Shown piece by piece: positions 20,322 through 40,568 of a stretch of 64,000 nt of DNA. Within the stretch, counting starts at the first letter, position 1. Each line of letters starts with the position of its first letter. The position numbers and the translations under genes are program-made. Below the pieces are notes generated by a model. The model did no database searches, was not told the origin of the DNA, and worked only from the letters and a program-made list of their open reading frames with translations. Source of the DNA: an uncultured Anaerolineales bacterium (GTDB lineage Bacteria; Chloroflexota; Anaerolineae; Anaerolineales; Villigracilaceae); contig CAISEG010000073.1 of NCBI GenBank assembly GCA_903884265.1, positions 13,957 to 77,956 of the forward strand, in the 5' to 3' direction.

Positions 20322-20326
20322 CCGGA

Positions 20327-21295: not shown

Positions 21296-21297
21296 GC

Positions 21298-23417: not shown

Positions 23418-23429
23418 CCCAAGGGCCCT

Positions 23430-24668
23430 ATGGACGAAATTGTTGTTGGAATTGACGTCGGAACGACCAAAGTCTGCACCCTGGTTGGACGGATCGAAGA
23501 AGAAACCATCCGCATCCTGGGTGTGGGCATCGAGCCTTCGGCAGGCATCAAGAAGGGTGTCATTGTGGACCTGGCAGAAGCCGCCCAGGCGATCACTAAA
23601 TCGGTGAGCATGGCCGAGCAGACCTCGGGCGTGGAAATCACCGGTGCGATGGTCAGCCTGGCCGGGGCGCATGTATCGTCCATTAATAGCCGCGGTGTGG
23701 CGGGGATCTCCGACGAGGTAATTGATGAGGTAGATGTGGCGCGTGCCCTTGAAGCAGCCCGGGCAGTGGCCATTCCTCACAACCGCGAGGTCATCCACGT
23801 CATCCAGCGCGGCTTCACGGTGGATGGACAGGATGGTATTTCAATGCCGCTCGGCATGCGCGGATATCGGCTAGAAGTGGAAACCCATATCATCACTGCC
23901 GCCCAGGCCACAGTCGAGAACCTGCGCCAGTGCGTCAGTGCAGCGGGTGTGGAAGTATTGCAATTCGTGCTCAACCCCCTGGCTTCGGGTGATGTGGTAC
24001 TGACTGACAACGAACGCCAGATGGGTGTGGCAGTCTGCGATATCGGTGGCGGGACAACCGATCTGGCCCTATATGTGGATGGTCACGTCTGGCATACGAT
24101 GGTGTTGGCTGTGGGCGGCAACCATATCACGAACGACATCGCCACAGGCCTCCGTCTTCCGTTCAATAAAGCTGAAGAGATCAAGAAGAAATATGGTTTT
24201 GCAATGAAGTCAGGAGTCGGGGCCGAGGAAACATTCAACGTACCCACCTTCGGTGAAGACCAGCCGGTGAAAATCAGCCGACAGGATATGGCTCACATCA
24301 TTGAGGCCAGAGTTGAGGAAATCTTCATATTAACGCTGCAAGAGATTAAGCGTTCTGGTTATGATGGCTTGTTGCCAGCTGGCCTGGTTTTGACAGGCGG
24401 TACAAGTGCCCTGCCCGGTATTCGTCAACTGGCTTCAAAGGTTTTCGGACTTCCAATCCGTACCGCCAAGCCTGAAAACCTGGTTGGTCTGGTTGACCAG
24501 TTGAAGAGTCCCGCATACTCCACCAGCGTTGGCCTGCTGCACTGGGCAGCAGCGATGACTGAAGACGACTTTTCTTCTGCTCGTGGACGCAAACAACGCG
24601 GCGGAAAGAGAGAAGTCCAATTGAACCTGGATCCGGTCAGGGATTGGTTCAAGAGATTGTTACCGTAG
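23430..24668 (+). CDS. ftsA: cell-division protein FtsA
   Basis: Actin-fold phosphate loops [15 protein letters not shown] and [22 protein letters not shown]. Confidence 0.95.
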
Positions 24669-24747
24669 TAAGTACCGGACGGACGAACAAAATCGCCACG
24701 TCGCCAAAAGTATCGTCAACCGTTCTCACTTTTCAGGAGGTAGTAAC

Positions 24748-25881
24748 ATGGACGCAAAAAAGAATCAAGCTGAAACATTCGCCCGCATCAAAGTAGTAGG
24801 CGTGGGCGGAGGCGGCAGCAACGCCGTCAACCGGATGATCGAGGAAGGCATCCAGGGAGTGGAGTTTGTTGCGATCAACACCGACGCCCAGGCGTTGATG
24901 CTGGCCAAGGCTCCCACCCGAGTACGCATCGGCAACAAGCTGACGCGCGGTCTTGGAGCGGGCGGTAACCCGGAGGTTGGGCGCAAGTCGGCCGAAGAAT
25001 CCGCTGAAGACCTTTATAACGCGCTGAAAGGCGCAGATATGATCTTCATCACGGCCGGCCTGGGTGGTGGAACAGGCACTGGTGCTGCCCCCATCGTGGC
25101 CCAGATCAGCCGCGAGGTCGGTGCGCTAACCATTGGTGTGGTCACCCGGCCATTCACCTTCGAGGGTAACCGCCGGATGCAGCAGTGCGAGACCGGCATG
25201 GCAAAACTCAAAGAACATTCCGACACCCTCATCGTCATCCCCAATGATCGGCTGCTTCAGATTATGGACAAGCGCGCCAGCTTGAATGACTCCTTCAAGA
25301 TGGCGGATGATGTCCTGCGCCAAGGCATTCAGGGTATCTCCGAATTGATCACTGTACCTGGTTTGATCAATCTCGACTTTGCCGACGTGCGCACCATCAT
25401 GTCGGAAGGCGGTGCGGCGCTGATGGCAGTTGGTAAGGCCTCCGGAGAGGACCGTGCCCGCCTGGCTGCCGAGCAGGCCATCTCCAGTCAACTCCTCGAT
25501 ATCACTATCGATGGTGCCAAGGGTGTGCTCTTCAACGTAACAGGCGGTCCCAGTTTGACCCTGTTCGAGGTCAACCAGGCTGCAGCCATGATTCGTGAGA
25601 CCGCCCATCCGGATGTGAACATGATCTTTGGTGCGGTAATCGACCCGGATATGACCGACGAGATCCGCGTGACGGTCATTGCCACCGGCTTCGAGCGTTC
25701 TGGCATGCCACGCCGCATTGCCCACCCGACATCCCGCAGCATGGATGGTAAGCCCGCCAACCGCCCACTTGAATCGGTCTCCGTGGAAGCCCAGTCCGGC
25801 CAGCCCGGCACTGAATTCCGCCCACAGACTTTCAACACCGAAGATCTGGACATCCCGACCTTCCTGCGCAACCGCAAGTAG
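24748..25881 (+). CDS. ftsZ: cell-division GTPase FtsZ
   Basis: [13 protein letters not shown], the tubulin signature [17 protein letters not shown], and the conserved C-terminal peptide [20 protein letters not shown]. Confidence 0.98.
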
Positions 25882-27065: not shown

Positions 27066-28040
27066 TTAATTTCCAATATTCAACATTCGGTGCAGGTAAT
27101 CATTAACGGCCTGCATGAAGAGGGCAGGTTGTTCCTCGTGAGGGACATGACCTGCCAGCGGAATGATAATCAGTTTGGCGTTCGGTAATGCGCCCGCCAG
27201 GCGGATCGAGTCCGCGGTTGGGATAATTTTATCGGTATCACCAGTGATGACCAGCACCGGTAAGTCGAATTCGCTCAAACGCGCCGGTAGACCGGATGGC
27301 TGGCTGGCGGCAGTGAAATACCACAGGGCCCGGTCCCAGTTATCGACCTGGAGTGGTTTGGTATAACCGGCCATTGTCTCCGGTGTGATCTTTGATTGGT
27401 CGTACCAGGCTGTTTTGAGAAGCTGAATCCCGCTGGTCTGGATCGAGCGGACGATTAATGGGCCAAGATGATTCATCTGTGGTGTATTGTAGAATGGGCG
27501 CAGCCAGGAGGGTCCGCCGCCACCTTCATAGACCGCAGGATCCACCAGGATAAGTCCCTGGACACGGTCGGGGTGCTGGAGGTAAAACTGCATCGCGACC
27601 ATGCCACCCGCAGAATTTCCGACCAAGACAGCTTTCTGAACATTGTAAAAGTCCAGCAAACCGAGCAGCTGGTCCACGCTGGCCTGCGGACCGTAGGGAT
27701 TCTGGCCTTTCCATGTCATTGGGCGTTCTGTGAGACCGAAAGCAGTGCGGTCGTAGGCAATGACCATCCCATCCTGACTTAATGGTTCCATGACAGCGTG
27801 CCAGGAAAACAGGCTGGCTCCAAAGCCATGCAAGAGTACGATGACCGGCCCCCCCTTCCCCATCGTCTTGATGTGGACGGAAAGCCCATTGATCTCAATG
27901 AACTGGCTGTCGGAATCTGTCAATTGTCCAGGCTGGACAGTATCCGTAAGCGCCGGGACTGGGACGAGGAATGGGCCCACCAATACAATAAACAGCAGGG
28001 CGGTCAGAATAATAAGCAGGCTGCGCCGGAAGTTTTTCAT
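27066..28040 (-). CDS. alpha/beta-fold hydrolase with N-terminal membrane anchor/signal
   Basis: VLLHGFGASLFSW (oxyanion HG), nucleophile elbow GNSAGG, and a C-terminal GHVPHEE His motif. Confidence 0.8.
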   Translation of the reverse strand: MKNFRRSLLIILTALLFIVLVGPFLVPVPALTDTVQPGQLTDSDSQFIEINGLSVHIKTMGKGGPVIVLLHGFGASLFSWHAVMEPLSQDGMVIAYDRTAFGLTERPMTWKGQNPYGPQASVDQLLGLLDFYNVQKAVLVGNSAGGMVAMQFYLQHPDRVQGLILVDPAVYEGGGGPSWLRPFYNTPQMNHLGPLIVRSIQTSGIQLLKTAWYDQSKITPETMAGYTKPLQVDNWDRALWYFTAASQPSGLPARLSEFDLPVLVITGDTDKIIPTADSIRLAGALPNAKLIIIPLAGHVPHEEQPALFMQAVNDYLHRMLNIGN

Positions 28041-28047
28041 ATTAAGA

Positions 28048-28806
28048 TTACTTGTGAGCTCTTACCCATCTTATAAGGCTATAGAGAAAAACAAGCGCCA
28101 CAAGCAGGCTTGTGATCAACGAGGCGATCCAGATGAGCGGTTCATTTGAGAACTTGTAGCCAATCCCTACTAGCGACCACAAGATGACCAGAATGTAAGC
28201 CACGTCACGGCGGTTCAGGCTCATCAGGGTTGAAATCACAAGGACAGCCACGAGGACTACCAGGAACCAGGTTTGCGCAGCGATACCAAAAACATTCCAT
28301 TTTAGATAGTCTAACACATCGGTCACATTGGCAACCGTGGCAACCGTGATCCAACCCAAGTAGACGCTGAAGGGGATGCGCACAGCCCAGTTCTCGCCGG
28401 TCGAAACTCTTATTCGCCCAATGCCGAGACGCTGATAAATGGCAATAAGCGAGCCAAGTAGGACCAGCATGGCAGCCAGCGTCCCGACGAATTGTTGGTA
28501 ATGCCACAGAAAGATCCATACGCTGTTCGCCAGTCCACCGAGAACGACCCACCAACCAGTGGACTGCAGGCGCGGGTTAATCTTCTGCGCAGGCAGGGCC
28601 TGGTAGATTGCGTAGGCGAGCAGGCCCATGTAGATCAGGCCCCAAATGGCAAAGACATATCCAGCCGGGACGAAATAAACGTGAAAATTATCCGAGATCC
28701 GGCCAGTATTCAGTCCGTTGATCGGCAGGGCATCGGCCAGGATGTTGATGGTGATTGTAGCCAGAATAACGACAACAACAGAAATCTGACGGAGGGCATT
28801 TTTCAT
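28048..28806 (-). CDS. Trp-rich polytopic membrane protein, TspO/MBR-related (long form)
   Basis: 252 aa, about 7 TM helices and many Trp residues. The N-terminal block ILADALPINGLNTGRISDNFHVYFVPAGYVFAIWGLIYMGLL resembles proteins annotated as tryptophan-rich sensory protein-like. Assigned from memory of the family. Confidence 0.45.
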   Translation of the reverse strand: MKNALRQISVVVVILATITINILADALPINGLNTGRISDNFHVYFVPAGYVFAIWGLIYMGLLAYAIYQALPAQKINPRLQSTGWWVVLGGLANSVWIFLWHYQQFVGTLAAMLVLLGSLIAIYQRLGIGRIRVSTGENWAVRIPFSVYLGWITVATVANVTDVLDYLKWNVFGIAAQTWFLVVLVAVLVISTLMSLNRRDVAYILVILWSLVGIGYKFSNEPLIWIASLITSLLVALVFLYSLIRWVRAHK

Positions 28807-28814
28807 AATTTTTC

Positions 28815-29192
28815 CTATTCGCTTAATTTGATCTCCAGGATCGCATAGTGGGTATGGCGCAATCTGGAATTGATTGAAAGAAGGATGCCCATCAAGCTGT
28901 ATTTTTTATAGATCAAATGGGCCACTTCCTTCTCTACCGTAGGGTCCGCCACGCGACGCGCCTGGGCCGGGATCCATTCACTTAGCAATCCCCCATCCAT
29001 TTTGCATAACGCCACATTGACATGACCATTATTGCGGATGCGCTTGACTTTACCCGATTCATCCACGGTCCGGACGAAGAGCGTCTTCCCATCCTGAACG
29101 AACCAGACAGGAGTCTTCATACCCTCGCCATTCCTGCGGAAGGTTTCGAGATTGATGTATTGTTGGTGTTTGAATTGTTCCAATTTATCCAT
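28815..29192 (-). CDS. PPOX-class (pyridoxamine 5'-phosphate oxidase-like) flavin/F420-binding split-barrel protein
   Basis: 125 aa. YINLETFRRNGEGMKTPVWFVQDGKTLFVRTVDESGKVKRIRNNGHVNVA is typical of small PPOX class F420/FMN enzymes. Confidence 0.7.
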   Translation of the reverse strand: MDKLEQFKHQQYINLETFRRNGEGMKTPVWFVQDGKTLFVRTVDESGKVKRIRNNGHVNVALCKMDGGLLSEWIPAQARRVADPTVEKEVAHLIYKKYSLMGILLSINSRLRHTHYAILEIKLSE

Positions 29193-29199
29193 TTTGCAC

Positions 29200-29955
29200 C
29201 TATTTCAAACCAGCCAGAAAATCCAACGTTGCCCCGACAATCTGATTTTGCTGGTCTTCCCTCGATATTGTTGCAAGATTATCGCCCGCTTGCGGACCAT
29301 ACCAGCCGAACTGGGCGTGGTCGCCACCTTCGATGGGAACAAAAACAGTCCCCACAGGGAGCAATTCATGAGATGCATTGATCTTGGCAGGTGTGGACAG
29401 CCCATCGAGAGTGCCTGAGATGGATAGGACCTCAACCCCACTTAGAGATAGATCATCACTTCGAGCAGGATAGGATGCCCAAAGGACCAATCCCTGGACC
29501 TTGCCCGGATGCGAATGGACAAAATTGGCTGCCATGGACCCTCCCAATGAGTGCCCACCCACAGCCCAGTGCTGGATCGCTGGGTAAGCAGCGATAACCT
29601 CCGCGGCCGCAGCCGGTTTGAAGACCGCCAAGTTAAGCGGGACATGGACAATTACCACAAGGTAACCCTGGGCGGCAATCTGGTGCGCGGCGGGAGCATA
29701 GGCACGATAATCCACGCGGCCGCCGGGATAAATAATAAAACCGGTTGTTGGCGGAGTAGTCAAGGGAGTAAAGACCAGCCATTGGCCGGTCTCAATTGCC
29801 ACGGCGTGGTCGGATTGGAGTGCGGTAAGCGCTTCTGGCATGGGTTTGGCCGGGGTTGAGCCCCATATCACGAAGGCGAGGGCGAGCACTACCAGCAGGA
29901 CGATGGATGCCAGAAGTATCCGGGTCCAGGCAGTAGTGCGTTTCTTCTCAGCCAT
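29200..29955 (-). CDS. membrane-anchored alpha/beta hydrolase
   Basis: N-terminal TM helix (ILLASIVLLVVLALAFVIW), nucleophile elbow GGHSLGG, and a C-terminal GGDHAQF motif. Confidence 0.7.
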   Translation of the reverse strand: MAEKKRTTAWTRILLASIVLLVVLALAFVIWGSTPAKPMPEALTALQSDHAVAIETGQWLVFTPLTTPPTTGFIIYPGGRVDYRAYAPAAHQIAAQGYLVVIVHVPLNLAVFKPAAAAEVIAAYPAIQHWAVGGHSLGGSMAANFVHSHPGKVQGLVLWASYPARSDDLSLSGVEVLSISGTLDGLSTPAKINASHELLPVGTVFVPIEGGDHAQFGWYGPQAGDNLATISREDQQNQIVGATLDFLAGLK

Positions 29956-31213
29956 TGGCCACCTCCGGAGTAGGGGGAACCACGGGAACTCTCACCAGGA
30001 TGATCCGTCGATATGCAAAGTACACCGCCCAGAGCATTAGGGCTGAACTCACAACACCGGGAGCCCAGGCGCCAAAGTTTTGGAGCAGGAATCCACCCGC
30101 CGAAGGGGCAATCACGCGCGTCACACTTTCCAATGAAGTGGAGATTCCCAGAGTGCCGCCAATCTCTGCGCGGGTGACTGACTTGGTAATGGCACTGTTG
30201 ATGATCGTGTTTAGCATTCCGCCACCCAGGGACAGGGGTAGCATGACGACCAACAGGACCGGTAGGTTCGGAGTAATTGCCCAACCGGCAAGACCAAAGA
30301 CCATCAACCACATGCTGGTGATAATGATGGCATTTTCTCTGAAACGTTTGGTCACAAGACCCACCCCAACGCCCTGAACCACTACCGAAAGCAGACCTAC
30401 ATAGGCGAGCACGTAGCCAGTGGTCTGTGAGGACAGTTTTAGTTTATACGCCGCGTACAAGGAAAAGATGGATTGGAACATGGAAAACGCCAGTCCGAAG
30501 AAGAACCGCACATGCAGTAGCGGACCAACCTTGGGGCGGTTAAGTGCATTGACCAAAGCCTTAAGCGTGAACGGAGGGCGTTTCCGCTCGCGGAGGTCTA
30601 AGCGGCGTTCTTCTGAAAGCGACTCGGGCAGGAAGAAGAAGATCGAGATCAGATTAAGGAAAGAGAGTCCCGCAGCGACCAATGCTGGAACACTATATCC
30701 AAATTTACTGAGCAGACCTCCAACCGCGGGTCCGATGATGAAACCCAGCCCAAAGGCCGCGCCGATTAGGCCCAGCCCCTTGGCACGGTTCTTTTCATCT
30801 GTTATATCAGAGATGTAGGCCTGCGCCACCGTGATATTGCCTCCAGTCAACCCATCCACACTGCGGCTAAGGAATAAGACGCCCAACACAAAGACGTTAA
30901 TGGCGGTCGAGGCAGCCAGGCTTGCCAGGCTGTGTCCAAGGGGTTCTGCAAATGCCAGTAATAGGAAGCCAACAAAAGTCCCGGCTACACTAAGCAACAG
31001 GATCAGGCGGCGGCCAAACCGGTCTGAGAGGCGGCCCATTAATGGCGCACCAAAAAGAGAAGCAGCTGCATAGGAAGCGGTCAGCAGCCCGATGACAGCC
31101 GGTGTTGCACCAAATTTTTCAGCATAATATGGCAATAGCGGCAGGATCAGGCTGAAGCCAAGCAGGTCAACGAATACAACAATAAAGATGTTAATTAAAC
31201 GGGCAGTTTTCAT
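29948..31213 (-). CDS. MFS transporter (DHA1/TetA-like efflux type)
   Basis: 12 TM helices. MFS motif A GRLSDRFGRRLILL. Overlaps the downstream gene by 8 nt. Confidence 0.85.
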   Translation of the reverse strand: MKTARLINIFIVVFVDLLGFSLILPLLPYYAEKFGATPAVIGLLTASYAAASLFGAPLMGRLSDRFGRRLILLLSVAGTFVGFLLLAFAEPLGHSLASLAASTAINVFVLGVLFLSRSVDGLTGGNITVAQAYISDITDEKNRAKGLGLIGAAFGLGFIIGPAVGGLLSKFGYSVPALVAAGLSFLNLISIFFFLPESLSEERRLDLRERKRPPFTLKALVNALNRPKVGPLLHVRFFFGLAFSMFQSIFSLYAAYKLKLSSQTTGYVLAYVGLLSVVVQGVGVGLVTKRFRENAIIITSMWLMVFGLAGWAITPNLPVLLVVMLPLSLGGGMLNTIINSAITKSVTRAEIGGTLGISTSLESVTRVIAPSAGGFLLQNFGAWAPGVVSSALMLWAVYFAYRRIILVRVPVVPPTPEVANG

Positions 31214-31221
31214 ATGGGTAT

Positions 31222-32091
31222 CTACTTTTCCAGAGGTTTAAAAGACGAGGGGATAATATTAACAGTCATATCTACAGACCGGGCAGGCAGGCGAAATAAG
31301 CTTCGTAATCCTTCCCGCAGGAACCCGAACAGGAAGCTAAATTGTGATCCGATTCTGATATCTAAGCCAGTCTTGCCGTCAGTGGCAGAAGAGGCTAGCC
31401 AGAGAGCCTTGCGAGCCGCGACTTCCGGTTTCTTCCCGGCAGCGCGGATCAGGAAAGGCATGAAACCGCGCAAGCGCTTCTCATGATTCTCGAAGGTGTC
31501 GATCTCGGTCAGCAAATCGGTATCCATCAGGCCGGGCTGGAGGGTGTACACCCCTACGCCGCTTTCTTTGTATTCAGAAGCCAGCGCCAGGGTAAAGACC
31601 CGGATCCAGGCTTTGGTTGAGCCATAAGCGTTCTGGTTCGGGACCGGTTTCTTCGAACCCGCACCAAGGATGTTAATGAGCTTGCCAGCCTTGCGCGGCA
31701 GGAAATGGCGCATGGCGGTCGCCGTACCATAATAATTGCCAAATATATTGGTCCGCAACACGGACAGAAACTGGTCAGGTGAAAGGTCGAGGGTCGCACC
31801 ATACGGGCCGGCAGTCCCCGCATTGTTGACCCAGATATCAAAGCCGCCATATTCCTTAATGGCAAAAAACGCCAGATCCTCCACTTGCTTCTGATCCGAG
31901 ACATCGCAGGCAAAGGCCAAAGCATCCAGCCCCTCCGCACGCAGGCTGGAGGCATTTTGTTCAATATCGTTTTTCGAACGAGCAGAGAGTATCACCTTTG
32001 CCCCTTCATGAGCGAAAAGGTTGGCGATGGCCTTTCCCAGGCCGCGGCTGGCTCCGGTGATGACAGTGACTTTTCCTTCAAGTTCTTTCAT
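31222..32091 (-). CDS. short-chain dehydrogenase/reductase (SDR)
   Basis: TGASRGLGKAIA cofactor motif, NNAG, and catalytic YGSTKA. Confidence 0.85.
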   Translation of the reverse strand: MKELEGKVTVITGASRGLGKAIANLFAHEGAKVILSARSKNDIEQNASSLRAEGLDALAFACDVSDQKQVEDLAFFAIKEYGGFDIWVNNAGTAGPYGATLDLSPDQFLSVLRTNIFGNYYGTATAMRHFLPRKAGKLINILGAGSKKPVPNQNAYGSTKAWIRVFTLALASEYKESGVGVYTLQPGLMDTDLLTEIDTFENHEKRLRGFMPFLIRAAGKKPEVAARKALWLASSATDGKTGLDIRIGSQFSFLFGFLREGLRSLFRLPARSVDMTVNIIPSSFKPLEK

Positions 32092-32107
32092 GTTTATTCC
32101 TTTTATC

Positions 32108-33142
32108 TTATTTTTCTGAGATCAATTCCACTGCAGCTGCCGGTTGTTTGCGGAAGCGGTCAGCGATCCAAATCCCGAATGCCACCACTCCAGCCAAGAC
32201 CAAGACCAGTAAATACTCGATCAATGGTATGCGTAAAATCTCGTTGAGTTGCACCCAACCGCGGCTGGGATAGACAAGCAGCGCACCCCCGACGAACAAT
32301 CCGGTAAAGGTCCACTTCAGCCAGCGTGGTAGATTGAGGCCATGCATCTGGGTCACGATGAAGATTCCAGCAAAACCAAAAGCGAACATCGGCCAGATGC
32401 CATTACCCTGAATAATTGCCACCAGCGTGCCGTGTACGGCTACCGTGACTTCCTGAACGACCATCCAGTATTTGTTGATATGGATGCGGGTCAGGAACAA
32501 GCTGCCCTGTAGCAACAGCAGGAACATATAGAAGAATCCGATCAGATGGCCGGTGGTATTCTCCATCGGATGATACCAGAAAGTATAAACAATGGCCCAT
32601 GCAAAAAGGTAACCGTGGTACTTACGCACAAAAGACATGACACGTTTACCCAGCGGAACTTTTTTCCCCCAGAAAAGTCCGCGTCGCTTATTCTCCATAA
32701 GCAGGATCGCTACCAGCATTAGGATGACCGAACTCTGGGATGAGAATATGGAAACATCCTGCGCCAGCCCATCGTACCAGAGGTGGGTCTGGACAAAGTG
32801 TAAAAGGATGAAAAAGACATTGGCTCCCAGCGCAACCAGGTTCACCAGATGCAGACCCGTGCTATATTTCTTGACCCGTGACTGGGCATAAAAAATAAGA
32901 CTCCAGAGTGTAATCTGGTGCAATACATAAAACATCCAGGCTGTGAAATGAGACCAGAAGGTCGGGGTGATCAGTTTCCAGTAATACCAGGCTGCGCCCC
33001 GGTCCAGCAGATGCGGGATGGAGGCAAGACGCTGTCCCGCCCACCAAATGAGCCCAGTGAAGGCAATACTGAAAGCAATGCCTCCCAACAGGGCAATCCT
33101 GACAGATCGGGGTTGATCAAGGGGGTTGGTTAGAGATGCCAT
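32108..33142 (-). CDS. polytopic membrane protein of unknown family; first gene of the operon facing litR
   Basis: 344 aa, about 9 TM helices with several intramembrane His residues (LHFVQTHLWYDG, YHGYLFAWAIVYTFWYHPME, TVAVHGT). AGGAA SD. Confidence 0.6.
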   Translation of the reverse strand: MASLTNPLDQPRSVRIALLGGIAFSIAFTGLIWWAGQRLASIPHLLDRGAAWYYWKLITPTFWSHFTAWMFYVLHQITLWSLIFYAQSRVKKYSTGLHLVNLVALGANVFFILLHFVQTHLWYDGLAQDVSIFSSQSSVILMLVAILLMENKRRGLFWGKKVPLGKRVMSFVRKYHGYLFAWAIVYTFWYHPMENTTGHLIGFFYMFLLLLQGSLFLTRIHINKYWMVVQEVTVAVHGTLVAIIQGNGIWPMFAFGFAGIFIVTQMHGLNLPRWLKWTFTGLFVGGALLVYPSRGWVQLNEILRIPLIEYLLVLVLAGVVAFGIWIADRFRKQPAAAVELISEK

Positions 33143-33180
33143 TTCCTTATATTTTTCCTTTTTTGGTCAAATTTAGATAT

Positions 33181-33209
33181 ATTATAATAGACTGCACATA
33201 AATTGTCAA
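33181..33209 (-). promoter_or_regulatory. consensus sigma-70 promoter for the 32108..33142 operon
   Basis: On the minus strand: TTGACA (33209..33204), 17-nt spacer, TATAAT (33186..33181). Confidence 0.7.
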
Positions 33210-33234
33210 GTTATTGTATAGATTTACTTGACAA
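33203..33234. promoter_or_regulatory. perfect 9-bp inverted repeat; candidate LitR/CarH operator
   Basis: TTGTCAAGT (33203..33211), 14-nt spacer, ACTTGACAA (33226..33234). Each arm contains the -35 hexamer of one of the two divergent promoters. Confidence 0.6.
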
Positions 33235-33256
33235 AATTAACTATTACAAGTATGAT
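33228..33256 (+). promoter_or_regulatory. sigma-70 promoter of litR/carH
   Basis: TTGACA (33228..33233), 17-nt spacer, TATGAT (33251..33256), 29 nt before the ATG. Confidence 0.65.
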
Positions 33257-33285
33257 TAACTTGGTTAAAAGAAAAGACAATATCA

Positions 33286-34236
33286 ATGGATAAATCTGGT
33301 TCAGCTTCACCCCTCTATAACATAGGCGTAGTTACCCGCGTCACTGGAGTTCCAATCGCAACTCTGCATGCCTGGGAAAGGCGCTATGGATTCCCTGACG
33401 CTGCACGATCTGCTGGCGGGCACCGCCTGTATTCAGAAAAAGACATCGCCCGTTTGCGCTGGGTCAAATCCCAAGTGGATTCAGGACTGACTGTCAGCCG
33501 GGCGGTGATCGCGGCGCGCGCCCTTGAAGCGAATGGACGCCTGTTCCTACCCAATGAATCGGAGGCAAGTCAAAAGTCTCAATCCAGCCGCATCGCTTTC
33601 CCATCCCTGCGTGAATCACTGCTGGACGCCCTCTTCCACCACAACCTGCCGCGCGCTGACCAATTAATGGGAGAGATGCTGGCGTTTTACTCCCCTGAAG
33701 ACCTGACGTTGGAGGTCATAGGCCCGGCATTGAATGCCATCGGTGAAGCCTGGGAACAGGGGCACATCACCATTGCCACCGAGCACCTAGCAACCAATTA
33801 CCTGCGTCACCGCCTGTTGATGTGGATGGTGACCGGTCTAACCCCCAGATCTGGGGACTCGATTGTGCTTGCCTGCGCGCCAGGCGAACTGCACGAGGGG
33901 AGTCTCCTGATGCTGGGTGTGCTTTTACGCCGTAAGGGTTGGCCAGTGGCCTATCTCGGCCAGAACGTACCCTTCCACGACCTGGCAAAATTTATTGACG
34001 ATATTCATCCCAGTGCAGTTGTACTTGTAGCCATCTGCGAAGAACCGGCGCGGGCGCTCACAGATTGGCCGCATTGGATCAACCAAGTGGGCGGTCACCC
34101 TATCATCGGATTTGGCGGGCGGGCATTTATCGTCCACCCGGAGTTGCAGGGAATGGTGCCAGGTGTCTATCTAGGTACATCAATATCGGAAGGTATGACA
34201 AATTTGGTTTCACTACTTCAAAGGATTGAAAAATAA
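33286..34236 (+). CDS. litR: MerR-family, B12-binding light-responsive regulator (CarH/LitR class)
   Basis: N-terminal MerR HTH (YNIGVVTRVTGVPIATLHAWERRYGFP...GGHRLYSEKDI). W-x9-E-H motif (WEQGHITIATEH). A cobalamin-binding Rossmann module follows, with lower-ligand region ACAPGELHEGSLLMLGVLLRRKGWPVAYLGQNVP. Confidence 0.8.
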   Translation: MDKSGSASPLYNIGVVTRVTGVPIATLHAWERRYGFPDAARSAGGHRLYSEKDIARLRWVKSQVDSGLTVSRAVIAARALEANGRLFLPNESEASQKSQSSRIAFPSLRESLLDALFHHNLPRADQLMGEMLAFYSPEDLTLEVIGPALNAIGEAWEQGHITIATEHLATNYLRHRLLMWMVTGLTPRSGDSIVLACAPGELHEGSLLMLGVLLRRKGWPVAYLGQNVPFHDLAKFIDDIHPSAVVLVAICEEPARALTDWPHWINQVGGHPIIGFGGRAFIVHPELQGMVPGVYLGTSISEGMTNLVSLLQRIEK

Positions 34237-34251
34237 TGCGTAAAAAAAAAG

Positions 34252-34279
34252 AACGGCCTCCAGAAAAACAGAGGCCGTT
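34252..34279. terminator. hairpin terminator; strong in the minus direction (obg), weaker for litR
   Basis: AACGGCCTC-loop(10)-GAGGCCGTT, preceded on the + strand by A9, which becomes a T-run for the minus strand. Confidence 0.6.
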
Positions 34280-34377
34280 TGAATTCCCTCAATTTTAAGA
34301 TCACTTGCCTTCCACCAGTACAGCTCGGGCAAGAACACTAAACATAGGAGAGTTGGATGGATAAAACTGAAGGGTAT

Positions 34378-35643
34378 TTACTCGCGATACTCCAGCTCAT
34401 ACTCCCCGATATAGACGGTATCCCCCTCCTGCGCGCCAGCTTCCCGGAGCGCCTTGTCCACGCCAAGACGTTCCATCAATTTCTGGAAGCGTCGCACCGA
34501 CCCGGACTGGTCCCATGGGGTCATTTCGGCCGCGCGTTCGATGGATACCGATTTGACACGAAAGCCGCCGTCCGATTCGCGCAGGATAGTGAAGGCGCGC
34601 GGGTCTTCGACAGGACGGTAGACCGGCATGGGTGGTTCGACTTCCTCCAGCGTGGGTGTCTCGGCGAGGATGGCAGCAGCTTTGAGCAGCAACGCGCGTG
34701 TATCGGTCCGTGCCAGGGCTGAGATCGCCATTGAAACAATGCCGCGCTTCTTGAGTTCCTTTTTGATCTTCGGCCAGCGCTCCAGGACCTCGGGCTGGTC
34801 AATTTTATTCAAGGCAACGATCTGCGGCTTCTTTGGCAGGTTCGGATCAAAGAGACCCAGTTCGGTGTTGCTTTGGTCAAAATCCTCCAACGGATCGTCG
34901 GAGAGACCATCCAGGAGGTGGATCAGAACCCGGGTGCGCTGGATGTGACGCAGGAAATCATGTCCCAGACCTACGCCTTGTGCGGCCCCTTCCACCAAGC
35001 CAGGGATGTCGGCGAGAACAACAGTCGTGTCAGCATCCACTTCTGCCACACCCAGGTTCGGTTCAATGGTCGTGAACGGATAAGCGGCAATTTTTGGCCT
35101 TGCATTGGTCAGGACAGACAGCAAAGTGGATTTTCCCGCGTTGGGTACACCAACGATGCCGATGTCAGCTATGAGTTTGAGCTCAAGGCGCAACCGTTTC
35201 TCCTCACCCGGTTCACCACGTTCAGCGGTGCGGGGGATCTGGTTGATGGAACTCTTGAAGTGGGGATTGCCACGCCCGCCGCGCCCGCCCTTGCAGACCT
35301 GCAATTGCTGGTCAAGCGCGGTCATGTCGCCAATCAGCTCTCCGGTAGCAGCGTCGTAGACCACCGTGCCAGGTGGGACAAGCACAAAAAGGTCATCGGC
35401 AGATTTACCAGACTTGTTATTGGTTCCTCCGCCTTTGCCGTCCTCCGCTGAATAACGAGTCGTATGGCGGAAAGCAGCTAGCGTGTTGAGGGTGGGAAGT
35501 ACTTCAAGAATAACGTTACCACCGCGCCCACCGTCGCCACCATCGGGTCCACCACGTGGTACATATTTCTCGCGATGGAAATGAACCATGCCATCGCCAC
35601 CTTTGCCGGATTGTACGAGGATTTCTGCTTGATCTATGAACAT
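34378..35643 (-). CDS. obg: GTPase Obg/CgtA
   Basis: Obg fold MFIDQAEILVQSGKGGDGMVHFHREKYVPRGGPDGGDGGRGGNVIL. G1 GVPNAGKST, G3 DIPGL, G4 NKID. C-terminal OCT-like domain. Confidence 0.95.
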   Translation of the reverse strand: MFIDQAEILVQSGKGGDGMVHFHREKYVPRGGPDGGDGGRGGNVILEVLPTLNTLAAFRHTTRYSAEDGKGGGTNNKSGKSADDLFVLVPPGTVVYDAATGELIGDMTALDQQLQVCKGGRGGRGNPHFKSSINQIPRTAERGEPGEEKRLRLELKLIADIGIVGVPNAGKSTLLSVLTNARPKIAAYPFTTIEPNLGVAEVDADTTVVLADIPGLVEGAAQGVGLGHDFLRHIQRTRVLIHLLDGLSDDPLEDFDQSNTELGLFDPNLPKKPQIVALNKIDQPEVLERWPKIKKELKKRGIVSMAISALARTDTRALLLKAAAILAETPTLEEVEPPMPVYRPVEDPRAFTILRESDGGFRVKSVSIERAAEMTPWDQSGSVRRFQKLMERLGVDKALREAGAQEGDTVYIGEYELEYRE

Positions 35644-35971
35644 GACCCTATTGTAACAAAGAGGTCGGGTTTCTGTGAGGAACCCAGCCTCTAGTTTATC
35701 TGTCGTTCCTGACCATTTATTTCAATTCCATGAACACTGGCCGGACCAGAACGCAGTACTTGCCGGAATTGCTGACGGAAAATCGAAGAAAACTGCAATC
35801 ATGGGTAATAAAGGAGATAAAAAAAGTTATAATAATCCAATACATGGAATATCACCAAGAGGTCGTGCCACGAAAATCACCATTCATTGTTAAATAATGG
35901 AAAGACTTTGTCCATTCCGTTGCGCATCCTCAATAGCTCAGTTAAGCGGTAGGTTATTTGAAAGGAGTTTC

Positions 35972-36466
35972 ATGGAAACAAAGGAAGAACTATCCAGCCC
36001 CTTTTCGATTGGAAATAATGAAACAAGCCAGCTAAAGACACTGGATATCAATAAAGTAAGGGAATTATGGTCAAAAACATACAATACCAATGGAAAACCG
36101 GATTGGTCCCATATTTATCCATATTATCACCCGCAAGTGGTTTTCCAGGATCCCATCCAACGCATCGAAGGGATGGAGGAATTTGTCGCCCTGTGCTCAC
36201 GTTTGGCAAAGCGCTGCGAAAGTCTGCAAATGGAAATCCTCTCCATAGCCCAGAATTCCAATACCATTTTAATGGACTGGATCATGACCATGTCTTTCAA
36301 TAAATATCCCAGCACTCCGGTATACGGGAGCACAAAACTCACCATCCACACGGACGGTCGGATCATTCACCAGCGCGACTATTTTGACCTGTGGGGCGAT
36401 ATCTTCAATGGGATTCCCTATTTCAAAAAAGCCTATCGAAAATTCATGCGAAAGCACTTCGGGTAG
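35972..36466 (+). CDS. NTF2-like (SnoaL-type) small protein
   Basis: 164 aa from the ATG at 35972 (AAAGGAG SD). The cone-fold pattern YHPQVVFQDPIQRIEGMEEF...DWIMTM...DGRIIHQRDYFD is typical of the SnoaL/NTF2 superfamily. Confidence 0.55.
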   Translation: METKEELSSPFSIGNNETSQLKTLDINKVRELWSKTYNTNGKPDWSHIYPYYHPQVVFQDPIQRIEGMEEFVALCSRLAKRCESLQMEILSIAQNSNTILMDWIMTMSFNKYPSTPVYGSTKLTIHTDGRIIHQRDYFDLWGDIFNGIPYFKKAYRKFMRKHFG

Positions 36467-36477
36467 AGGAGCAACCC

Positions 36478-37407
36478 ATGCCAAAGCGGGAACTACCTGA
36501 TGAATTGATATTCATCAAAAACAGACGGGCAATCCAGAGGGCTACTACCGCTTCCATGGCGGGTAAGGTCTGTGTGGTATCCGGTTCATCCTCAGGAGTA
36601 GGACTGGAGGCTATTAAACGTCTTGCCCGTGGAGGCGCACAAATCGTCATGGTCTGCCGGAACCCAGACAAAGCCGATACCATCCGGAAGGAGGTGCTGG
36701 CACTATACAATGTCCGGGTGGATATCATCACATCAGATTTCAGTGATCTGGACGATGTCCGTAAAGCAGCGAATATCCTACTCAAAGATTACCCCCGTAT
36801 CGATGTACTGATCAACTCAGCTGGTCTGCATTCAACCACCCGTACGACCACCAAGGCTGGATTTGAAACGGTTTTCTGCGTAAATCATCTCGCTCCGTTT
36901 CTTCTTACTTACCTGCTTCTTGAGCGGTTAAAGAAAAGCGCACCCGCCCGTATCATCCAGGTGAATTCTGAAGGTCACAGGTTCGGCGGTCTGGATTTGG
37001 ATGATCTGAATTGGGAACACCGGCATTACATGGGACTCCGGGGGTACGGCGCTTCCAAGGTTGCGCAGCTGCTAACCACTTGGGAATTTGCTGACCGCTT
37101 GAAGGGATCTAGAGTTACCATCAACGCGATGCACCCAGGGGATGTGAAGACCAATATTGGCAATAACAACGGACCTTTGTATAGGTGGTTCCTTCATAAT
37201 GTCACCTGGCATACGCTAAAAGACCCGCTCTTATCCGGTGAAGCGCTGTACTACCTGGCTGCCGCCCCCGAATTGGCAGAAGTGAGCGGCCGTTTTTTCC
37301 ACCTGACCATCGATGAGAAACCCGCGACCAATGCCCTGGATCGGGAGAAAGGCCGCAAGGTATGGGATCTGAGCATGGAAATGACCGGGCTTACAGCAAG
37401 TCCTTAA
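36478..37407 (+). CDS. SDR-family oxidoreductase (retinol dehydrogenase/WWOX-like subgroup)
   Basis: VVSGSSSGVGLEA, NSAG and YGASKVA. ATG at 36478 with a GAGGAG SD. The 3' end overlaps the convergent gene by 17 nt. Confidence 0.8.
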   Translation: MPKRELPDELIFIKNRRAIQRATTASMAGKVCVVSGSSSGVGLEAIKRLARGGAQIVMVCRNPDKADTIRKEVLALYNVRVDIITSDFSDLDDVRKAANILLKDYPRIDVLINSAGLHSTTRTTTKAGFETVFCVNHLAPFLLTYLLLERLKKSAPARIIQVNSEGHRFGGLDLDDLNWEHRHYMGLRGYGASKVAQLLTTWEFADRLKGSRVTINAMHPGDVKTNIGNNNGPLYRWFLHNVTWHTLKDPLLSGEALYYLAAAPELAEVSGRFFHLTIDEKPATNALDREKGRKVWDLSMEMTGLTASP

Positions 37408-39007
37408 GAACCTTATCCGCGGCCAATTTGCCGGTCAGAATGGAAATCGGCAATCCGGAAGGACTATATGTCCATTGTCCCGCCTGGTATATGTCTGGAA
37501 TCGGCGTCAGAACAGAACTTGCCACTTTTGGAAGTCTATTCACTGCTGGGATGTAATCATTGGTGAATGCCCAGCCTGTGATGGCACCATCAGAGTTCCC
37601 GGAGATCCTCTCAATGGTCAGTGGGGTGGAAGTAAAACTGTCAATGACTGCCGCCCTGAGTCCCGGGTAAATACTGGAATCCAGCACATCAATTATCTCA
37701 TTCGTCATCATTTCCTTAAACTCGTCATACCATCCCATTGCCTGGATATGTTTCGCCAGGGAATAGTCAAATAACACGCTGATGATAAGCCCTGTTTTGC
37801 CTTCGGGGGCAAGGCTGCCATCCCTGAGAACGGGGCAGGATATTTCATAGGTGTTAAGCTCAAGGAATCGCTTTAGCCAGGTCACAATCCGTTGTTTATC
37901 ACCAATAATTCTTCTAAGGTCCTTCCGGTCAGGGTCGAACAAACCATTTATACTGGAATTGGATAGACCGGATATGGATGGGGTATAGAAAAAGTGAGCG
38001 TTGGATATTTTTGCAAAATACGCCTTGTCTAAATTTATGGTTAGGTAAAGGGTAAAAACGGAATCTCCGCCGGTTTTCCCTGAAATTGCTTTCTGTCTTG
38101 CTTGGATCTTCCTGACTACTTTGCTGTCCGTCAAGGTTGACAGGTTGGTGATGCGGAAAAGGGTCTTTAAATCCGCCGCCCAGACCAGCTTCCTGTATCG
38201 ATATAGATTTCCATTGGAATCAGCCACCTGATTCCTTCCAGGATCAACGCTTGTAATCTCCGTTTCTTTTATTATTTCTCCGTGATTTTCCAGGATGAAC
38301 CGCTCCATTGCCTGGGGAAAACTTCCGGTTCCTCCCCTGGGGTATCGGTAATCCAGGTAAAGGGTGAAATAACTTAACGCAAAGTATGCCGGGGTCTTTT
38401 GAAAAAAATGCTGGTCAATGATATCCAGTAATGCCTGGTTCTTGGAAAATCCGGACAGGTATTCATCTACAGGCTGATATAGTTTGGTCATTTTTGGAAG
38501 AGTTCGTATGTATTTCATTGCCCATGGAAGAATCGTCCTGGATATATATTTCAGGTTGGTTAAATCCATGAATAGCGGATTATCAATGCCATAAAGGATA
38601 TCCATGTACCCCATAACTTTGCGGACTTCCTGGACAATGCCAGCAATATCCCGCTTATTTTCAGGAAAGTATTTTCCCAAAAGTTCCTGGTAGGCTTTCA
38701 GACTGTCTTTTGAGTCGACCTCGACCACATCTTTTCCAATGCCAATGGATACGCCATTCGCAAGAAATTCGACTTCCAGTCCCAGCTGTCTGAGCATAGG
38801 AAACACAATCCCTGAATTTTCAATCCCCCGGATGCCCCCATCAAAAACGAATCCCTTATAATTAAACGAATTGACCAGCCCCCCGGTCTTCTTTTCCTTT
38901 TCGCACAACAGAACCTTCAAACCCGCTTTGGAAAGGTAAGAGGCGGCCGTAAGGCCGGCCATTCCGCCTCCAACAATGATGACATCATAAGTTAAAGAGG
39001 TATCCAT
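37391..39007 (-). CDS. FAD-dependent oxidoreductase of the phytoene desaturase (CrtI)/amine oxidase superfamily
   Basis: 538 aa. Dinucleotide fold YDVIIVGGGMAGLTAASYLSKAGLKVLLCEKEKKTGG. C-terminal FAD block YQAGQWTYSPSGLP. Confidence 0.75.
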   Translation of the reverse strand: MDTSLTYDVIIVGGGMAGLTAASYLSKAGLKVLLCEKEKKTGGLVNSFNYKGFVFDGGIRGIENSGIVFPMLRQLGLEVEFLANGVSIGIGKDVVEVDSKDSLKAYQELLGKYFPENKRDIAGIVQEVRKVMGYMDILYGIDNPLFMDLTNLKYISRTILPWAMKYIRTLPKMTKLYQPVDEYLSGFSKNQALLDIIDQHFFQKTPAYFALSYFTLYLDYRYPRGGTGSFPQAMERFILENHGEIIKETEITSVDPGRNQVADSNGNLYRYRKLVWAADLKTLFRITNLSTLTDSKVVRKIQARQKAISGKTGGDSVFTLYLTINLDKAYFAKISNAHFFYTPSISGLSNSSINGLFDPDRKDLRRIIGDKQRIVTWLKRFLELNTYEISCPVLRDGSLAPEGKTGLIISVLFDYSLAKHIQAMGWYDEFKEMMTNEIIDVLDSSIYPGLRAAVIDSFTSTPLTIERISGNSDGAITGWAFTNDYIPAVNRLPKVASSVLTPIPDIYQAGQWTYSPSGLPISILTGKLAADKVLKDLL

Positions 39008-39028
39008 TAAGTTGCGCTCCAGGTCAAA

Positions 39029-39058
39029 ATTATATCAGGTGTCTTTCAATAACATCAA
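39029..39058 (-). promoter_or_regulatory. candidate promoter of the CrtI-like gene
   Basis: On the minus strand: TTGATG (39058..39053), 18-nt spacer, TATAAT (39034..39029). GGAG SD downstream. Confidence 0.4.
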
Positions 39059-39179
39059 GATTTATTCAAGGCAGGATATTCAAAAGCAAGAGCCAGCCTT
39101 CCCCTATGGGACAATTAGCGAGGAGGAACTTCAACGCTAAAAGAAGACAACTCTGGAAAGAGTTAGTGTGCTATCTAAT

Positions 39180-39215
39180 GTTAAAAGTCCCAGGCCTTCG
39201 TCCGGGACTTTTAAC
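39180..39215 (-). terminator. 12-bp perfect hairpin downstream of the 39234..40568 gene
   Basis: GTTAAAAGTCCC-loop(12)-GGGACTTTTAAC, beginning 19 nt after the stop codon. Confidence 0.55.
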
Positions 39216-39233
39216 ATTAAAGATAATCCTCAC

Positions 39234-40568
39234 TTATTTCTTCTTGCTCTTCTTCCCAAATTTTGCCTTGAGGATATCCTCCAGCGTCGGCTGGCCGATC
39301 TCCTGCAGCTCATAGCGTACACGCTGGTAGGGTTTGGTGATCTTAATGACCCGCGTTAGGTCGATCGGGGTGCCAATGATGACCAAATCCACATCAGCTT
39401 TCTTGATGGTGGCCTCCAGGTCTTTCATCTGAGCCGCACCGTAGCCCATGGCCGGAAGGATGGGACCGGTCTTGGGGTATTTCTTGTAAGTTTCGGCGAT
39501 GGATCGGACCGCGAACGGTCGCGGGTCCACGATCTCTTTGGCGCCGAAGCGTTTGGCAGCCACGAATCCAGCGCCGTAAGCCATCTCACCATGGGTCAGG
39601 GTGGGGCCGTCCTCAATGACCAGGACGCGCTTGCCCAGGATTGCTGCTGGATTGTCGACAAAAAGCGGAGAGGCAGCTTCGATGATGGTGGCTTTCGGAT
39701 TCAGCTGGCGCAGGTTCTCGCGGATCTTGATGACCGCCTGCGGGTCAGCAGTGTCAACCTTGTTGATGACGATCACATCCGCGTCACGGCTGTTGACCTC
39801 GCCGGGATGGTAGGCGCTCTCATGCCCGGGGCGGTGCGGATCAGCGACCACGATCTTCAGGTCCGAGACATAGAACGAGAAATCGTTGTTACCTCCGTCC
39901 CAAAGGATGATATCCACTTCCTTCTCAGCGGCGCGCAGGATCTTCTCGTAATCCACTCCGGCATAGACAATGACACCGTTGTCGATGTGGGGTTCGTATT
40001 CCTCGCGCTCTTCGATGGTGCACTCGTTCTTATCAAGGTCAGCGTAGGTGGCGAAACGCTGGACTTCCTGCTTGACCAGGTCACCGTAGGGCATCGGGTG
40101 ACGGATGGCAGCGACCTTGAAGCCCATGTTGCGCAGGATGAGCGAGACACGGCGAGTGGTCTGGCTCTTGCCCGCCCCGGTACGCACTGCACAGATCGAT
40201 ATGACCGGCTTTGTGGATTTGACCTGGGTGGATTTCTCCCCCATCAGGCGGAAGTCGGCTCCGGCAGCCAGCACCATCGAAGCCTTGTGCATGACCACTT
40301 CGTGTGGAACATCCGAGTAGGCAAAGATGACCTGCTCCACTTTCAAATCCTTGATGAGTTTCAGCAGGTCGGTTTCGGCATAGATGGGAATGCCTTTGGG
40401 ATAAAGTTTCCCCGCCAGTTGTTTCGGATAAGTGCGGCCTTCGATGTCGGGGATCTGGGTCGCAGTAAAAGCCACCACTTCATAGTCCTTGTTGTCACGG
40501 AAATAGACATTGAAGTTGTGAAAGTCGCGCCCGGCGGCGCCCATGATGAGAGTACGGGTTGGGGACAT
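39234..40568 (-). CDS. cyclic 2,3-diphosphoglycerate synthetase-family P-loop protein
   Basis: 444 aa. The N-terminus LIMGAAGRDFHNFNVYFRDNKDYEVVAFTATQIPDIEGRTYP and the P-loop-like CAVRTGAGKSQTT match my recollection of the cDPGS family. Not verified by search. Confidence 0.55.
   Translation of the reverse strand: MSPTRTLIMGAAGRDFHNFNVYFRDNKDYEVVAFTATQIPDIEGRTYPKQLAGKLYPKGIPIYAETDLLKLIKDLKVEQVIFAYSDVPHEVVMHKASMVLAAGADFRLMGEKSTQVKSTKPVISICAVRTGAGKSQTTRRVSLILRNMGFKVAAIRHPMPYGDLVKQEVQRFATYADLDKNECTIEEREEYEPHIDNGVIVYAGVDYEKILRAAEKEVDIILWDGGNNDFSFYVSDLKIVVADPHRPGHESAYHPGEVNSRDADVIVINKVDTADPQAVIKIRENLRQLNPKATIIEAASPLFVDNPAAILGKRVLVIEDGPTLTHGEMAYGAGFVAAKRFGAKEIVDPRPFAVRSIAETYKKYPKTGPILPAMGYGAAQMKDLEATIKKADVDLVIIGTPIDLTRVIKITKPYQRVRYELQEIGQPTLEDILKAKFGKKSKKK

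Follow-up and report, generated by a model that had tools for sequence, protein, structure and literature searches.

A CarH/LitR homologue and a putative shared operator of tandem 11-bp repeats between back-to-back promoters in an uncultured Anaerolineales bacterium

In an uncultured Anaerolineales bacterium (assembly GCA_903884265.1, contig CAISEG010000073.1), a gene encoding a MerR-type regulator and an operon transcribed in the opposite direction share a short intergenic gap with two promoters. An earlier note, made from the sequence alone, proposed that one light-sensitive repressor bound to a perfect inverted repeat in this gap and blocked both promoters. We asked whether the regulator is a B12-dependent photoreceptor of the CarH/LitR type and, if so, which element in the gap it recognizes. 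Below, the window is the whole stretch of 64,000 nucleotides (64 kb) that was analyzed, and all positions refer to it. We consider it quite probable that a class I CarH/LitR repressor, bound to adenosylcobalamin (AdoCbl) in the dark and released by light, controls both promoters from a set of tandem repeats. The elements in question are as follows.

33286..34236, plus strand: CarH/LitR-type regulator of 316 amino acids (aa), assigned with Pfam, phmmer, AlphaFold2 and Foldseek.
33181..33209, minus strand: promoter of the divergent operon, with -35 box TTGACA (33209..33204), 17-bp spacer and -10 box TATAAT (33186..33181), 12 of 12 consensus positions.
33228..33256, plus strand: promoter of the regulator gene, with -35 box TTGACA (33228-33233), 17-bp spacer and -10 box TATGAT (33251-33256), 11 of 12 consensus positions.
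33203..33211, strand not assigned: left arm of the inverted repeat, TTGTCAAGT, one of only two exact copies in the window.
33226..33234, strand not assigned: right arm of the inverted repeat, ACTTGACAA, the other of the only two exact copies in the window.
33192..33224, minus strand: proposed CarH operator core of three tandem 11-bp repeats, with unit scores of 2, 2 and 1.
33224..33214, minus strand: inner repeat AATCTATACAA, full (T-nn-ACA).
33213..33203, minus strand: middle repeat TAACTTGACAA, full (T-nn-ACA), holding the -35 box of the divergent operon.
33202..33192, minus strand: outer pseudo-repeat TTTATGTGCAG (T-nn-GCA).
33224..33234, plus strand: mirrored unit TTACTTGACAA, matching nnnnTnnACAn and holding the regulator's own -35 box, a possible fourth binding unit.
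33751..33786, plus strand: codons of W156-x9-E166-H167 (WEQGHITIATEH, residues 156-167), found by regular-expression match.

Sequence, fold and the W-x9-E-H motif all identify the regulator as a homologue of class I CarH/LitR proteins. In a phmmer search, residues 6-261 aligned with Thermus thermophilus LitR/CarH (TtCarH; 3WHP, 5C8D) at an E value of 5e-39, with the W, E, H and axial His aligned, and residues 6-75 aligned with the TtCarH DNA-binding domain. Pfam detected MerR_1 (PF13411, 51 bits) and B12-binding_2 (PF02607, 50 bits). An AlphaFold2 model built on 16 clade members had a mean predicted local distance difference test score (pLDDT) of 81, with a disordered linker at residues 88-101. 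When this model was compared with the PDB using Foldseek, the top 50 matches were all TtCarH/LitR (E values down to 3e-20). The cobalamin-binding domain matched that of TtCarH/LitR with a template-modelling (TM) score of 0.88 and a root-mean-square deviation of 2.1-2.3 Å, confirming a Rossmann fold. The earlier note had assigned the protein to the CarH/LitR type and had called for comparison by hidden Markov model and structure. These comparisons with Pfam, phmmer and Foldseek all point to CarH/LitR, and the assignment held.

CarH homologues are defined by W-x9-E-H together with the classic motif E-x-H-x2-G-x41-S-x-V/T-x22-27-GG, and carry the recognition helix RxWERRY (PMC8156234, PMC9304148). 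In the four-helix bundle of CarH, W-x9-E-H caps the adenosyl group of AdoCbl (PMC8156234). This motif, which the earlier note had pointed out next to the MerR helix-turn-helix, is intact at residues 156-167 of the regulator and in 120 of 120 clade members. Cobalamin binding by the regulator is likely, and it may respond to light.

Two related types of protein were considered and rejected. The B12-independent paralogue CarA of Myxococcus xanthus resembles the regulator in the arrangement of its domains and in its DNA-binding domain. However, the Trp of W-x9-E-H is missing from CarA together with four residues that flank it, whereas the regulator keeps the Trp and the full motif. The Trp-region deletion could be seen in a CarA-like copy from a Myxococcus locus (L040, 5128-5994) used for comparison. 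Class II LitR of the Pseudomonas type consists of a four-helix bundle only and has no Rossmann B12 domain (PMC9758184), while a Rossmann domain is present in the regulator by both alignment and fold.

Among the candidates scored, 2950 proteins matched the regulator at E ≤1e-20. The nearest relatives, with 60-99% identity, are labelled Anaerolineales or Anaerolineae where the source names them. An exact-protein look-up found no identical protein on record in public assemblies, and a search of the available literature for a described Chloroflexi CarH returned nothing specific. A distant CarH-like paralogue was observed in another metagenome-assembled genome of Chloroflexota (L023, 5983-7323). 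It has 446 aa and 32% identity, and it carries a C-terminal extension of ~130 residues after the B12 domain.

We then consider the gap in which the regulator would act. Positions 33143-33285 are non-coding, in agreement with the 143-bp divergent gap of the earlier note, and contain 22% G+C compared with 54% in the whole window. Both promoters lie where that note had placed them, with N17 spacers and with 12 of 12 (minus strand) and 11 of 12 (plus strand) consensus positions, and they ranked first and second in a consensus scan of positions 28000-40000. Transcripts are predicted to start near 33174 on the minus strand and near 33263 on the plus strand. Six sites with at least 11 of 12 consensus positions were found in 64 kb, compared with 0.6 expected from shuffles. 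Textbook -35/-10 promoters appear to be in use by the Anaerolineae genome of the window.

A perfect 9-bp inverted repeat, formed by the two arms listed above, was also part of the earlier description and was recovered. A repeat finder reported the dyad as 16-nt arms with 81% complementarity and no gap between them. Further copies of the arm in the window were only chance-level matches with one mismatch. Of the nine palindromic bases, six belong to the two opposed TTGACA -35 hexamers and three more are symmetric, and outward symmetry beyond the palindrome is 3 of 14, which is background. Most of the palindrome can thus be put down to the opposite orientation of two consensus TTGACA boxes. The two promoters and the intervening repeats depart strongly from chance expectation, whereas the palindrome in itself does not.

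Published CarH operators consist of tandem 11-bp direct repeats, nnnnTnnACAn, with the -35 box TTGACA inside one repeat, and they contain three (Thermus), four (Bacillus) or five (Myxococcus) units (PMC9304148). We coded the published search rule (PMC9304148), in which all of three tandem 11-bp units have to reach T-nn-RCR and two or more have to be T-nn-ACA. The rule gave a single match on both strands of the 64 kb, at 33192-33224, compared with a mean of 0.03 in 30 block shuffles, and found no other CarH operator in the window. The only other adjacent pair of full repeats (2384-2405) lies inside the open reading frame (ORF) 2044-3099 and was judged to be due to chance. The recognition element is therefore most likely the set of three tandem minus-strand repeats at 33192-33224, not the 9-bp palindrome.

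The mirrored unit overlaps the repeat array by one base and runs in the opposite direction, and it may serve as a further binding unit. Any consensus TTGACA contains T-nn-ACA and scores as a CarH repeat core, so the right arm is not independent evidence for such a unit. Four other strong promoters in the window each contain one such "repeat", and none has phased repeats beside it.

To compare the operator across genomes, we drew on 160 related loci in collections of genomes and metagenomes. Upstream of the regulator gene, TGTCAA and TTGACA boxes are present in 35 orthologous loci whose proteins have 44-97% identity; both -10 boxes are at 17-bp spacing there, and the TTGACAA arm is kept. The arm-to-arm offset is 24 in 16 loci (window included), 33-36 in 18 and 46 in one, and no intermediate offsets occur among these 35. 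These steps of ~11 bp indicate that the operator grows by whole ~11-bp units. The added units read TTGTATAG-like and are in phase with the left arm. The strict three-repeat rule matched 14 of 46 orthologue upstream regions, compared with 0.03 expected from shuffles. In all 14, the array is on the strand of the divergent gene and includes its -35 box; one locus (L009) has a second array too, without a TTGACA box.

The divergent layout and the operator blocks are kept down to ~50% protein identity. The following blocks of the gap do not vary among six close relatives: the Shine-Dalgarno sequence of the membrane-protein gene, GGT..ATTT, ATTATA, TG.A.A (outer repeat), TTGTCAA, TATTG.ATA (inner repeat), CTTGAC and GTA..ATT. 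The invariant blocks coincide with the repeats and all four promoter hexamers, and a GTAnnAT block at the regulator promoter is conserved in orthologues. In most orthologue loci, dyad symmetry outside the hexamers does not rise above background, and strong outward symmetry was found in a subset only (13 of 14 in L089, 11 of 14 in L090 and L092, 10 of 14 in L088). What is conserved is a pair of promoters facing away from each other and linked by phased 11-bp units, and not the palindrome itself. Of the earlier proposal, the idea of a single complex occluding both -35 boxes is supported. The site overlaps both boxes, so that one bound complex could silence both promoters, and such control has a precedent in Sorangium (see below). 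The palindrome, in contrast, is most likely not the recognition element; in most orthologues the dyad outside the hexamers is not conserved.

Two further features of these gaps were observed. The block GGT..ATTT (window 33165-33174), invariant in the six close relatives, corresponds to roughly the first ten nucleotides (+1 to +10) of the transcript predicted on the minus strand. It lies outside the repeats and promoter hexamers. In L089 and L090, ~100 bp before position 3001, the -35 boxes lie within a near-perfect 18-bp inverted repeat, CTGTACTGGTTTTGTCAA / TTGACAAAACCAGTACAG. Each -35 box there has a GTACA unit 11 bp outside it and there is no tandem inner repeat, so that these two loci, which belong to the same clade, carry a truly palindromic variant of the operator.

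We infer B12 binding, the oligomeric state, the light response, the direction of regulation and the use of the mirrored unit in the following model. In the dark, the regulator would bind AdoCbl and assemble into an oligomer, which in Thermus and Bacillus CarH is a tetramer. Its MerR-type DNA-binding domains would sit on the successive 11-bp repeats at 33192-33224. Three-repeat CarH sites give DNase footprints of 34-38 bp (PMC9304148), and a complex of this extent would hide the minus-strand -35 box with the greater part of the adjoining spacer and extend as far as 33228, the edge of the plus-strand -35 box. A fourth DNA-binding domain, if it engaged 33224-33234, would cover the regulator's own -35 box. 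Even with that domain idle, both promoters would be blocked, because the DNA upstream of the plus-strand -35 box, to which RNA polymerase also needs access at this promoter, is the array itself. Light would cleave the Co-C bond, the oligomer would fall apart and DNA binding would be lost. The two near-consensus promoters would then fire, producing more repressor and the seven-gene operon. Judged from relatives, the operon products would have tailoring or accessory roles in a pathway for carotenoids and photoprotection that light induces.

The activators MerR, CueR and ZntR, which share the N-terminal MerR helix-turn-helix domain with the regulator and give weak NCBIfam matches to it, bind a dyad inside an over-long spacer of 19-20 bp and activate transcription by DNA distortion. 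In contrast, both spacers in the window have the optimal length of 17 bp and the repeats overlap the -35 boxes. This argues for steric repression, and activation by spacer distortion was rejected.

The cobalamin-binding region of the regulator contains the following feature.

33886..34119, plus strand: codons of the variant B12 motif E201-x-H203-x2-S206-x41-V248-x-I250-x26-G277-G278, found by motif comparison.

Several observations in this region and elsewhere weigh against the proposed repressor. The Pfam model B12-binding (PF02310) scored 28.8 bits on the regulator, just below its cut-off of 32.1. The best NCBIfam model, the equivalog NF052513 ("HTH-type transcriptional repressor CarH"), gave 174.4 bits (E 2.8e-51) and did not reach the curated cut-off of 400 bits of this narrow model. 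By the NCBI criterion the protein, judged by these sequence scores, is a homologue in the CarH family, not an equivalog. When the classic B12 pattern was tested as D/E-x-H-x2-G/P-x41-S-x-T/V-x22-27-GG, the full motif was absent from the regulator and from all 120 clade members. The regulator departs from it at three signature positions (G/P to S206, S to V248 and T/V to I250). The earlier note had described the motif, through ELHEGS (residues 201-206) and GQNVP (residues 225-229), as close to canonical. This is correct for the Glu, the axial His, the GG and all spacings, which are kept in the clade consensus E-x-H-x2-S-x41-V-x-M/I-x26-GG, but the deviation at the other positions is systematic.

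Residues outside this motif deviate as well. The recognition helix reads HAWERRY, thus HxWERRY instead of RxWERRY, with WERRY invariant; of 115 clade members, 106 start this helix motif with His and 8 with Arg. Directly after the Trp, the regulator and 113 of 120 clade members have Glu, where TtCarH has the His that gives rise to its bis-His light state. At the two positions that make up the dimer salt bridge Arg176-Asp201 in TtCarH, the regulator has Leu and Asn in the alignment, and given these residues its oligomer may differ from that of TtCarH. As to the setting, the public runs holding the locus are freshwater-sediment and peat metagenomes, and the host lineage comes from sediment and peat, where light is limited. 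No RNA-seq run covering the locus is listed among these public runs, which are DNA metagenomes only. Neither crtI nor crtB is present in the 64-kb window.

Compared with the Thermus and Deinococcus proteins, the regulator has ~25 additional residues in the linker that connects its DNA-binding and cobalamin-binding domains. In a tentative extension of the model, which we regard as rather unlikely, the Anaerolineae clade would be a mechanistic variant of CarH in two ways. All four DNA-binding domains would be used, three on the tandem repeats and the fourth, via the longer linker, on the inverted unit, and the S, V and M/I substitutions and the Glu after the Trp would change the corrinoid bound or the photochemistry of the light state. 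In TtCarH, one DNA-binding domain stays free and the head-to-head geometry of a fourth unit is not seen. If the extension is true, operators of 3, 4 or 5 units would tune the switch.

We weighed three other explanations of the locus. In the one closest to the earlier note, a dimer or dimer-of-dimers would read TTGTCAAGT-N14-ACTTGACAA symmetrically, and the inner TTGTATAG would be a mere spacer. MerR-family proteins classically bind dyads, which counts for this explanation, as do the perfect 9-bp repeat, the 16-nt arms with 81% complementarity and the long true palindromes of L089 (13 of 14), L090 and L092 (11 of 14) and L088 (10 of 14). However, six of the nine bases are forced by the opposed consensus -35 boxes, and outward symmetry, with 3 of 14 in the window, does not exceed background there or in most orthologues. 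Close relatives all keep the inner unit TATTG.ATA without change, spaced in 11-bp register with the left arm, and the ~11-bp steps of the arm offset suit added repeat units better than a fixed dyad. In addition, the CarH operators that have been solved and footprinted are tandem direct repeats. We therefore consider symmetric reading of the palindrome unlikely.

A different possibility concerns the signal. The regulator could be a sensor of B12 status, in which the corrinoid, as co-repressor, reports cobalamin supply in a mostly dark habitat and light has no physiological role. The sediment and peat habitat and the clade-wide change on the nucleotide-loop side of the B12 motif are consistent with this, and since apo-CarH does not repress, B12 supply always gates such a switch (PMC9304148). 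Against it stands the strict conservation of W-x9-E-H (120 of 120), which caps the photolabile adenosyl group and sets CarH apart from the B12-independent CarA. The targets in relatives include crtI-crtB, for photoprotective carotenoid synthesis. Moreover, no genes for B12 synthesis or uptake were found in the window, and an Rfam scan of it gave no matches, hence no cobalamin riboswitch. A sensor of B12 status alone is thus very improbable in our view. We give a still lower probability to coincidence, in which the regulator acts elsewhere or is inactive and the back-to-back position of two strong housekeeping promoters in an AT-rich gap has no further meaning. Six promoters with at least 11 of 12 consensus positions do occur in 64 kb, and any TTGACA scores as a CarH repeat. 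Nevertheless, an array of three repeats occurs only once in 64 kb, where shuffles give a mean of 0.03, and such arrays recur at 14 of 46 orthologous loci compared with 0.03 expected. The other strong promoters are without flanking repeats, and the divergent layout and operator blocks are kept to ~50% protein identity.

The proposed repressor on tandem repeats can be compared with characterized CarH systems. TtCarH (5C8D/5C8E/5C8F/3WHP) has the same three-module architecture, fold, W-x9-E-H motif, axial His in E-x-H and GG. Its operator is likewise a tandem row of three 11-bp units, nnnnTnnACAn, with the -35 box inside one of them, and its gene is autoregulated (PMC9304148, PMC8156234). The regulator of the window shares only ~31-33% identity with it, and differs in the longer linker, in the Glu after the Trp, in the Leu/Asn at the salt bridge and in the three substitutions of the B12 motif. 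The operator of the window also differs, as it lies between back-to-back promoters and has a mirrored fourth unit. In Sorangium cellulosum, one CarH site of three 11-bp repeats in the divergent crtI-carH gap overlaps promoter elements of both genes, and B12- and light-dependent control of crtI and carH has been shown by quantitative reverse-transcription PCR, electrophoretic mobility shift assay and footprinting (PMC9304148). One-site control of divergent promoters is therefore not new. For the Sorangium and Haliangium proteins, chimeras that join the DNA-binding domain and linker to the cobalamin-binding domain of TtCarH have been made (PMC9304148). The divergent crtI-carH layout of Sorangium was found in seven orthologues of the window regulator. 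Sorangium belongs to another phylum, however, and its site has one full repeat and two pseudo-repeats, whereas that of the window has two full repeats and one pseudo-repeat, promoters of consensus grade and no crtI adjoining the regulator gene.

CarH/LitR of Bacillus megaterium is an AdoCbl-dependent repressor with four tandem repeats overlapping the -35 or -10 box (PMC9304148). Orthologues of the window regulator with an offset of 33-36 likewise have one extra repeat. In the published description of the B. megaterium operators all repeats have one orientation, whereas the last unit of the proposed operator in the window is inverted. For the operator of M. xanthus CarA, the first description was of inverted repeats that overlap the -35 box (PMC9304148). 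The locus is thus an Anaerolineae member of the known CarH/LitR switch and a largely ordinary example of it, which leaves the known principle unchanged. Its peculiarities are at the level of the clade, namely the variant B12 motif, the inverted terminal unit with a stepwise operator size and the unnamed target genes.

The target genes on the other side of the gap are listed below.

27066..33142, minus strand: seven-gene operon under the minus-strand promoter, with ORFs 7-16 bp apart or overlapping.
32108-33142, minus strand: first operon gene, an ORF for a His-rich membrane protein of 344 aa.
31222-32091, minus strand: SDR (Pfam).
29948-31213, minus strand: MFS transporter (Pfam).
29200-29955, minus strand: Abhydrolase_5 protein (Pfam).
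28815-29192, minus strand: PNPOx-like protein (Pfam).
28048-28806, minus strand: ORF for a membrane protein of 252 aa.
27066-28040, minus strand: alpha/beta hydrolase (Pfam).

This gene order recurs in four other loci (L001, L003, L004 and L008). Across the orthologous loci, the gene divergent to the regulator encodes the 344-aa protein in 10 cases, crtI followed by crtB in 7, a TIGR01777/YfcH oxidoreductase in 8, an NmrA-like protein in 5 and the SDR in 4. The divergent CrtI of the seven loci is a true phytoene desaturase, with 481 bits for TIGR02734 against a cut-off of 238. In L002, carH is divergent to crtI, crtB and the gene for the 344-aa protein. In L005, it is divergent to crtI, crtB and the genes for an SDR, the 252-aa protein and a hydrolase. 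As crtI-crtB is joined to genes of the window operon in these two loci, we read the window operon as the accessory part of a mosaic operon that includes carotenoid genes and has a CarH-type site at its head. On the basis of this gene context, the seven-gene operon is probably light-induced and linked to carotenoids.

We regard the 344-aa protein as a candidate for a membrane oxidoreductase that is induced by light and acts on carotenoids or lipids. It has no Pfam match even at E = 10, no NCBIfam match and no PDB match, and its AlphaFold2 model is weak (pLDDT 58). We observed that its family includes >3000 close homologues, all "hypothetical", which form 833 clusters at 50% identity. The protein has ~9 predicted helices and seven invariant His. 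Two long members of the family (P0355 and P0366) have an N-terminal cytochrome b5 together with a reductase module for flavin adenine dinucleotide and nicotinamide adenine dinucleotide. Another member (P0274) is fused to Abhydrolase_5, which is the family of the gene three places downstream in the window operon.

The 252-aa protein likewise has no Pfam match even at E = 10 and no NCBIfam match; a TspO-like identity was a guess for which no support was found. Homologues of it adjoin more distant CarH-like regulators (32-52% identity) in three loci (L010 7970-8521, L023 7348-8007 and L025 7355-8014). This suggests a link to the regulator family beyond the window operon.

With these results, the B12-photoreceptor switch would reach uncultured Anaerolineae from sediment and peat, which are usually treated as dark-living fermenters, and these bacteria would be expected to meet light and defend themselves against it. 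The locus would offer a compact bidirectional light switch of consensus strength. The natural series of operators differing by whole 11-bp units could be useful for the study of flexible DNA binding by CarH and for optogenetic design. An unnamed, widespread family of His-rich membrane proteins, sometimes fused to a cytochrome-b5 reductase module, gains a functional handle through the operon.

Downstream of the regulator gene, the following feature separates it from the convergent obg gene.

34252..34279, strand not assigned: terminator-like G+C-rich hairpin with an 11-pair stem, an A-run on the left and a T-rich stretch on the right, between the regulator gene and convergent obg.

This hairpin is likely a two-way terminator that leaves the regulator gene monocistronic. 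On the other side of obg (35897-39007), genes were observed for a SnoaL/DUF2358-like protein, a second SDR and a 538-aa flavoprotein of the CrtI superfamily. The flavoprotein was considered as a true CrtI and rejected, with 70.6 bits for TIGR02734, less than the cut-off of 238.1. Its promoter (39058..39029, 10 of 12 consensus positions, extended -10) has no CarH-type repeats. An ORF of 444 aa without a Pfam match at E 1e-5 is located at 39234-40568 on the minus strand.

The setting is an ordinary chromosome, not a mobile element. A dcw (division and cell-wall) cluster on the plus strand (8817-25881), with mraW, a gene for an ftsI-like penicillin-binding protein, Mur ligases, mraY, ftsW, murB, ddl, ftsQ, ftsA and ftsZ, ends ~1.2 kb from the last gene of the operon. 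The four other sigma-70 consensus promoters of the window, with 11-12 of 12 positions, are at 51342, 54648, 56318 and 56578. Two of these, at 56318 (minus strand) and 56578 (plus strand), are ~260 bp apart and point in opposite directions.

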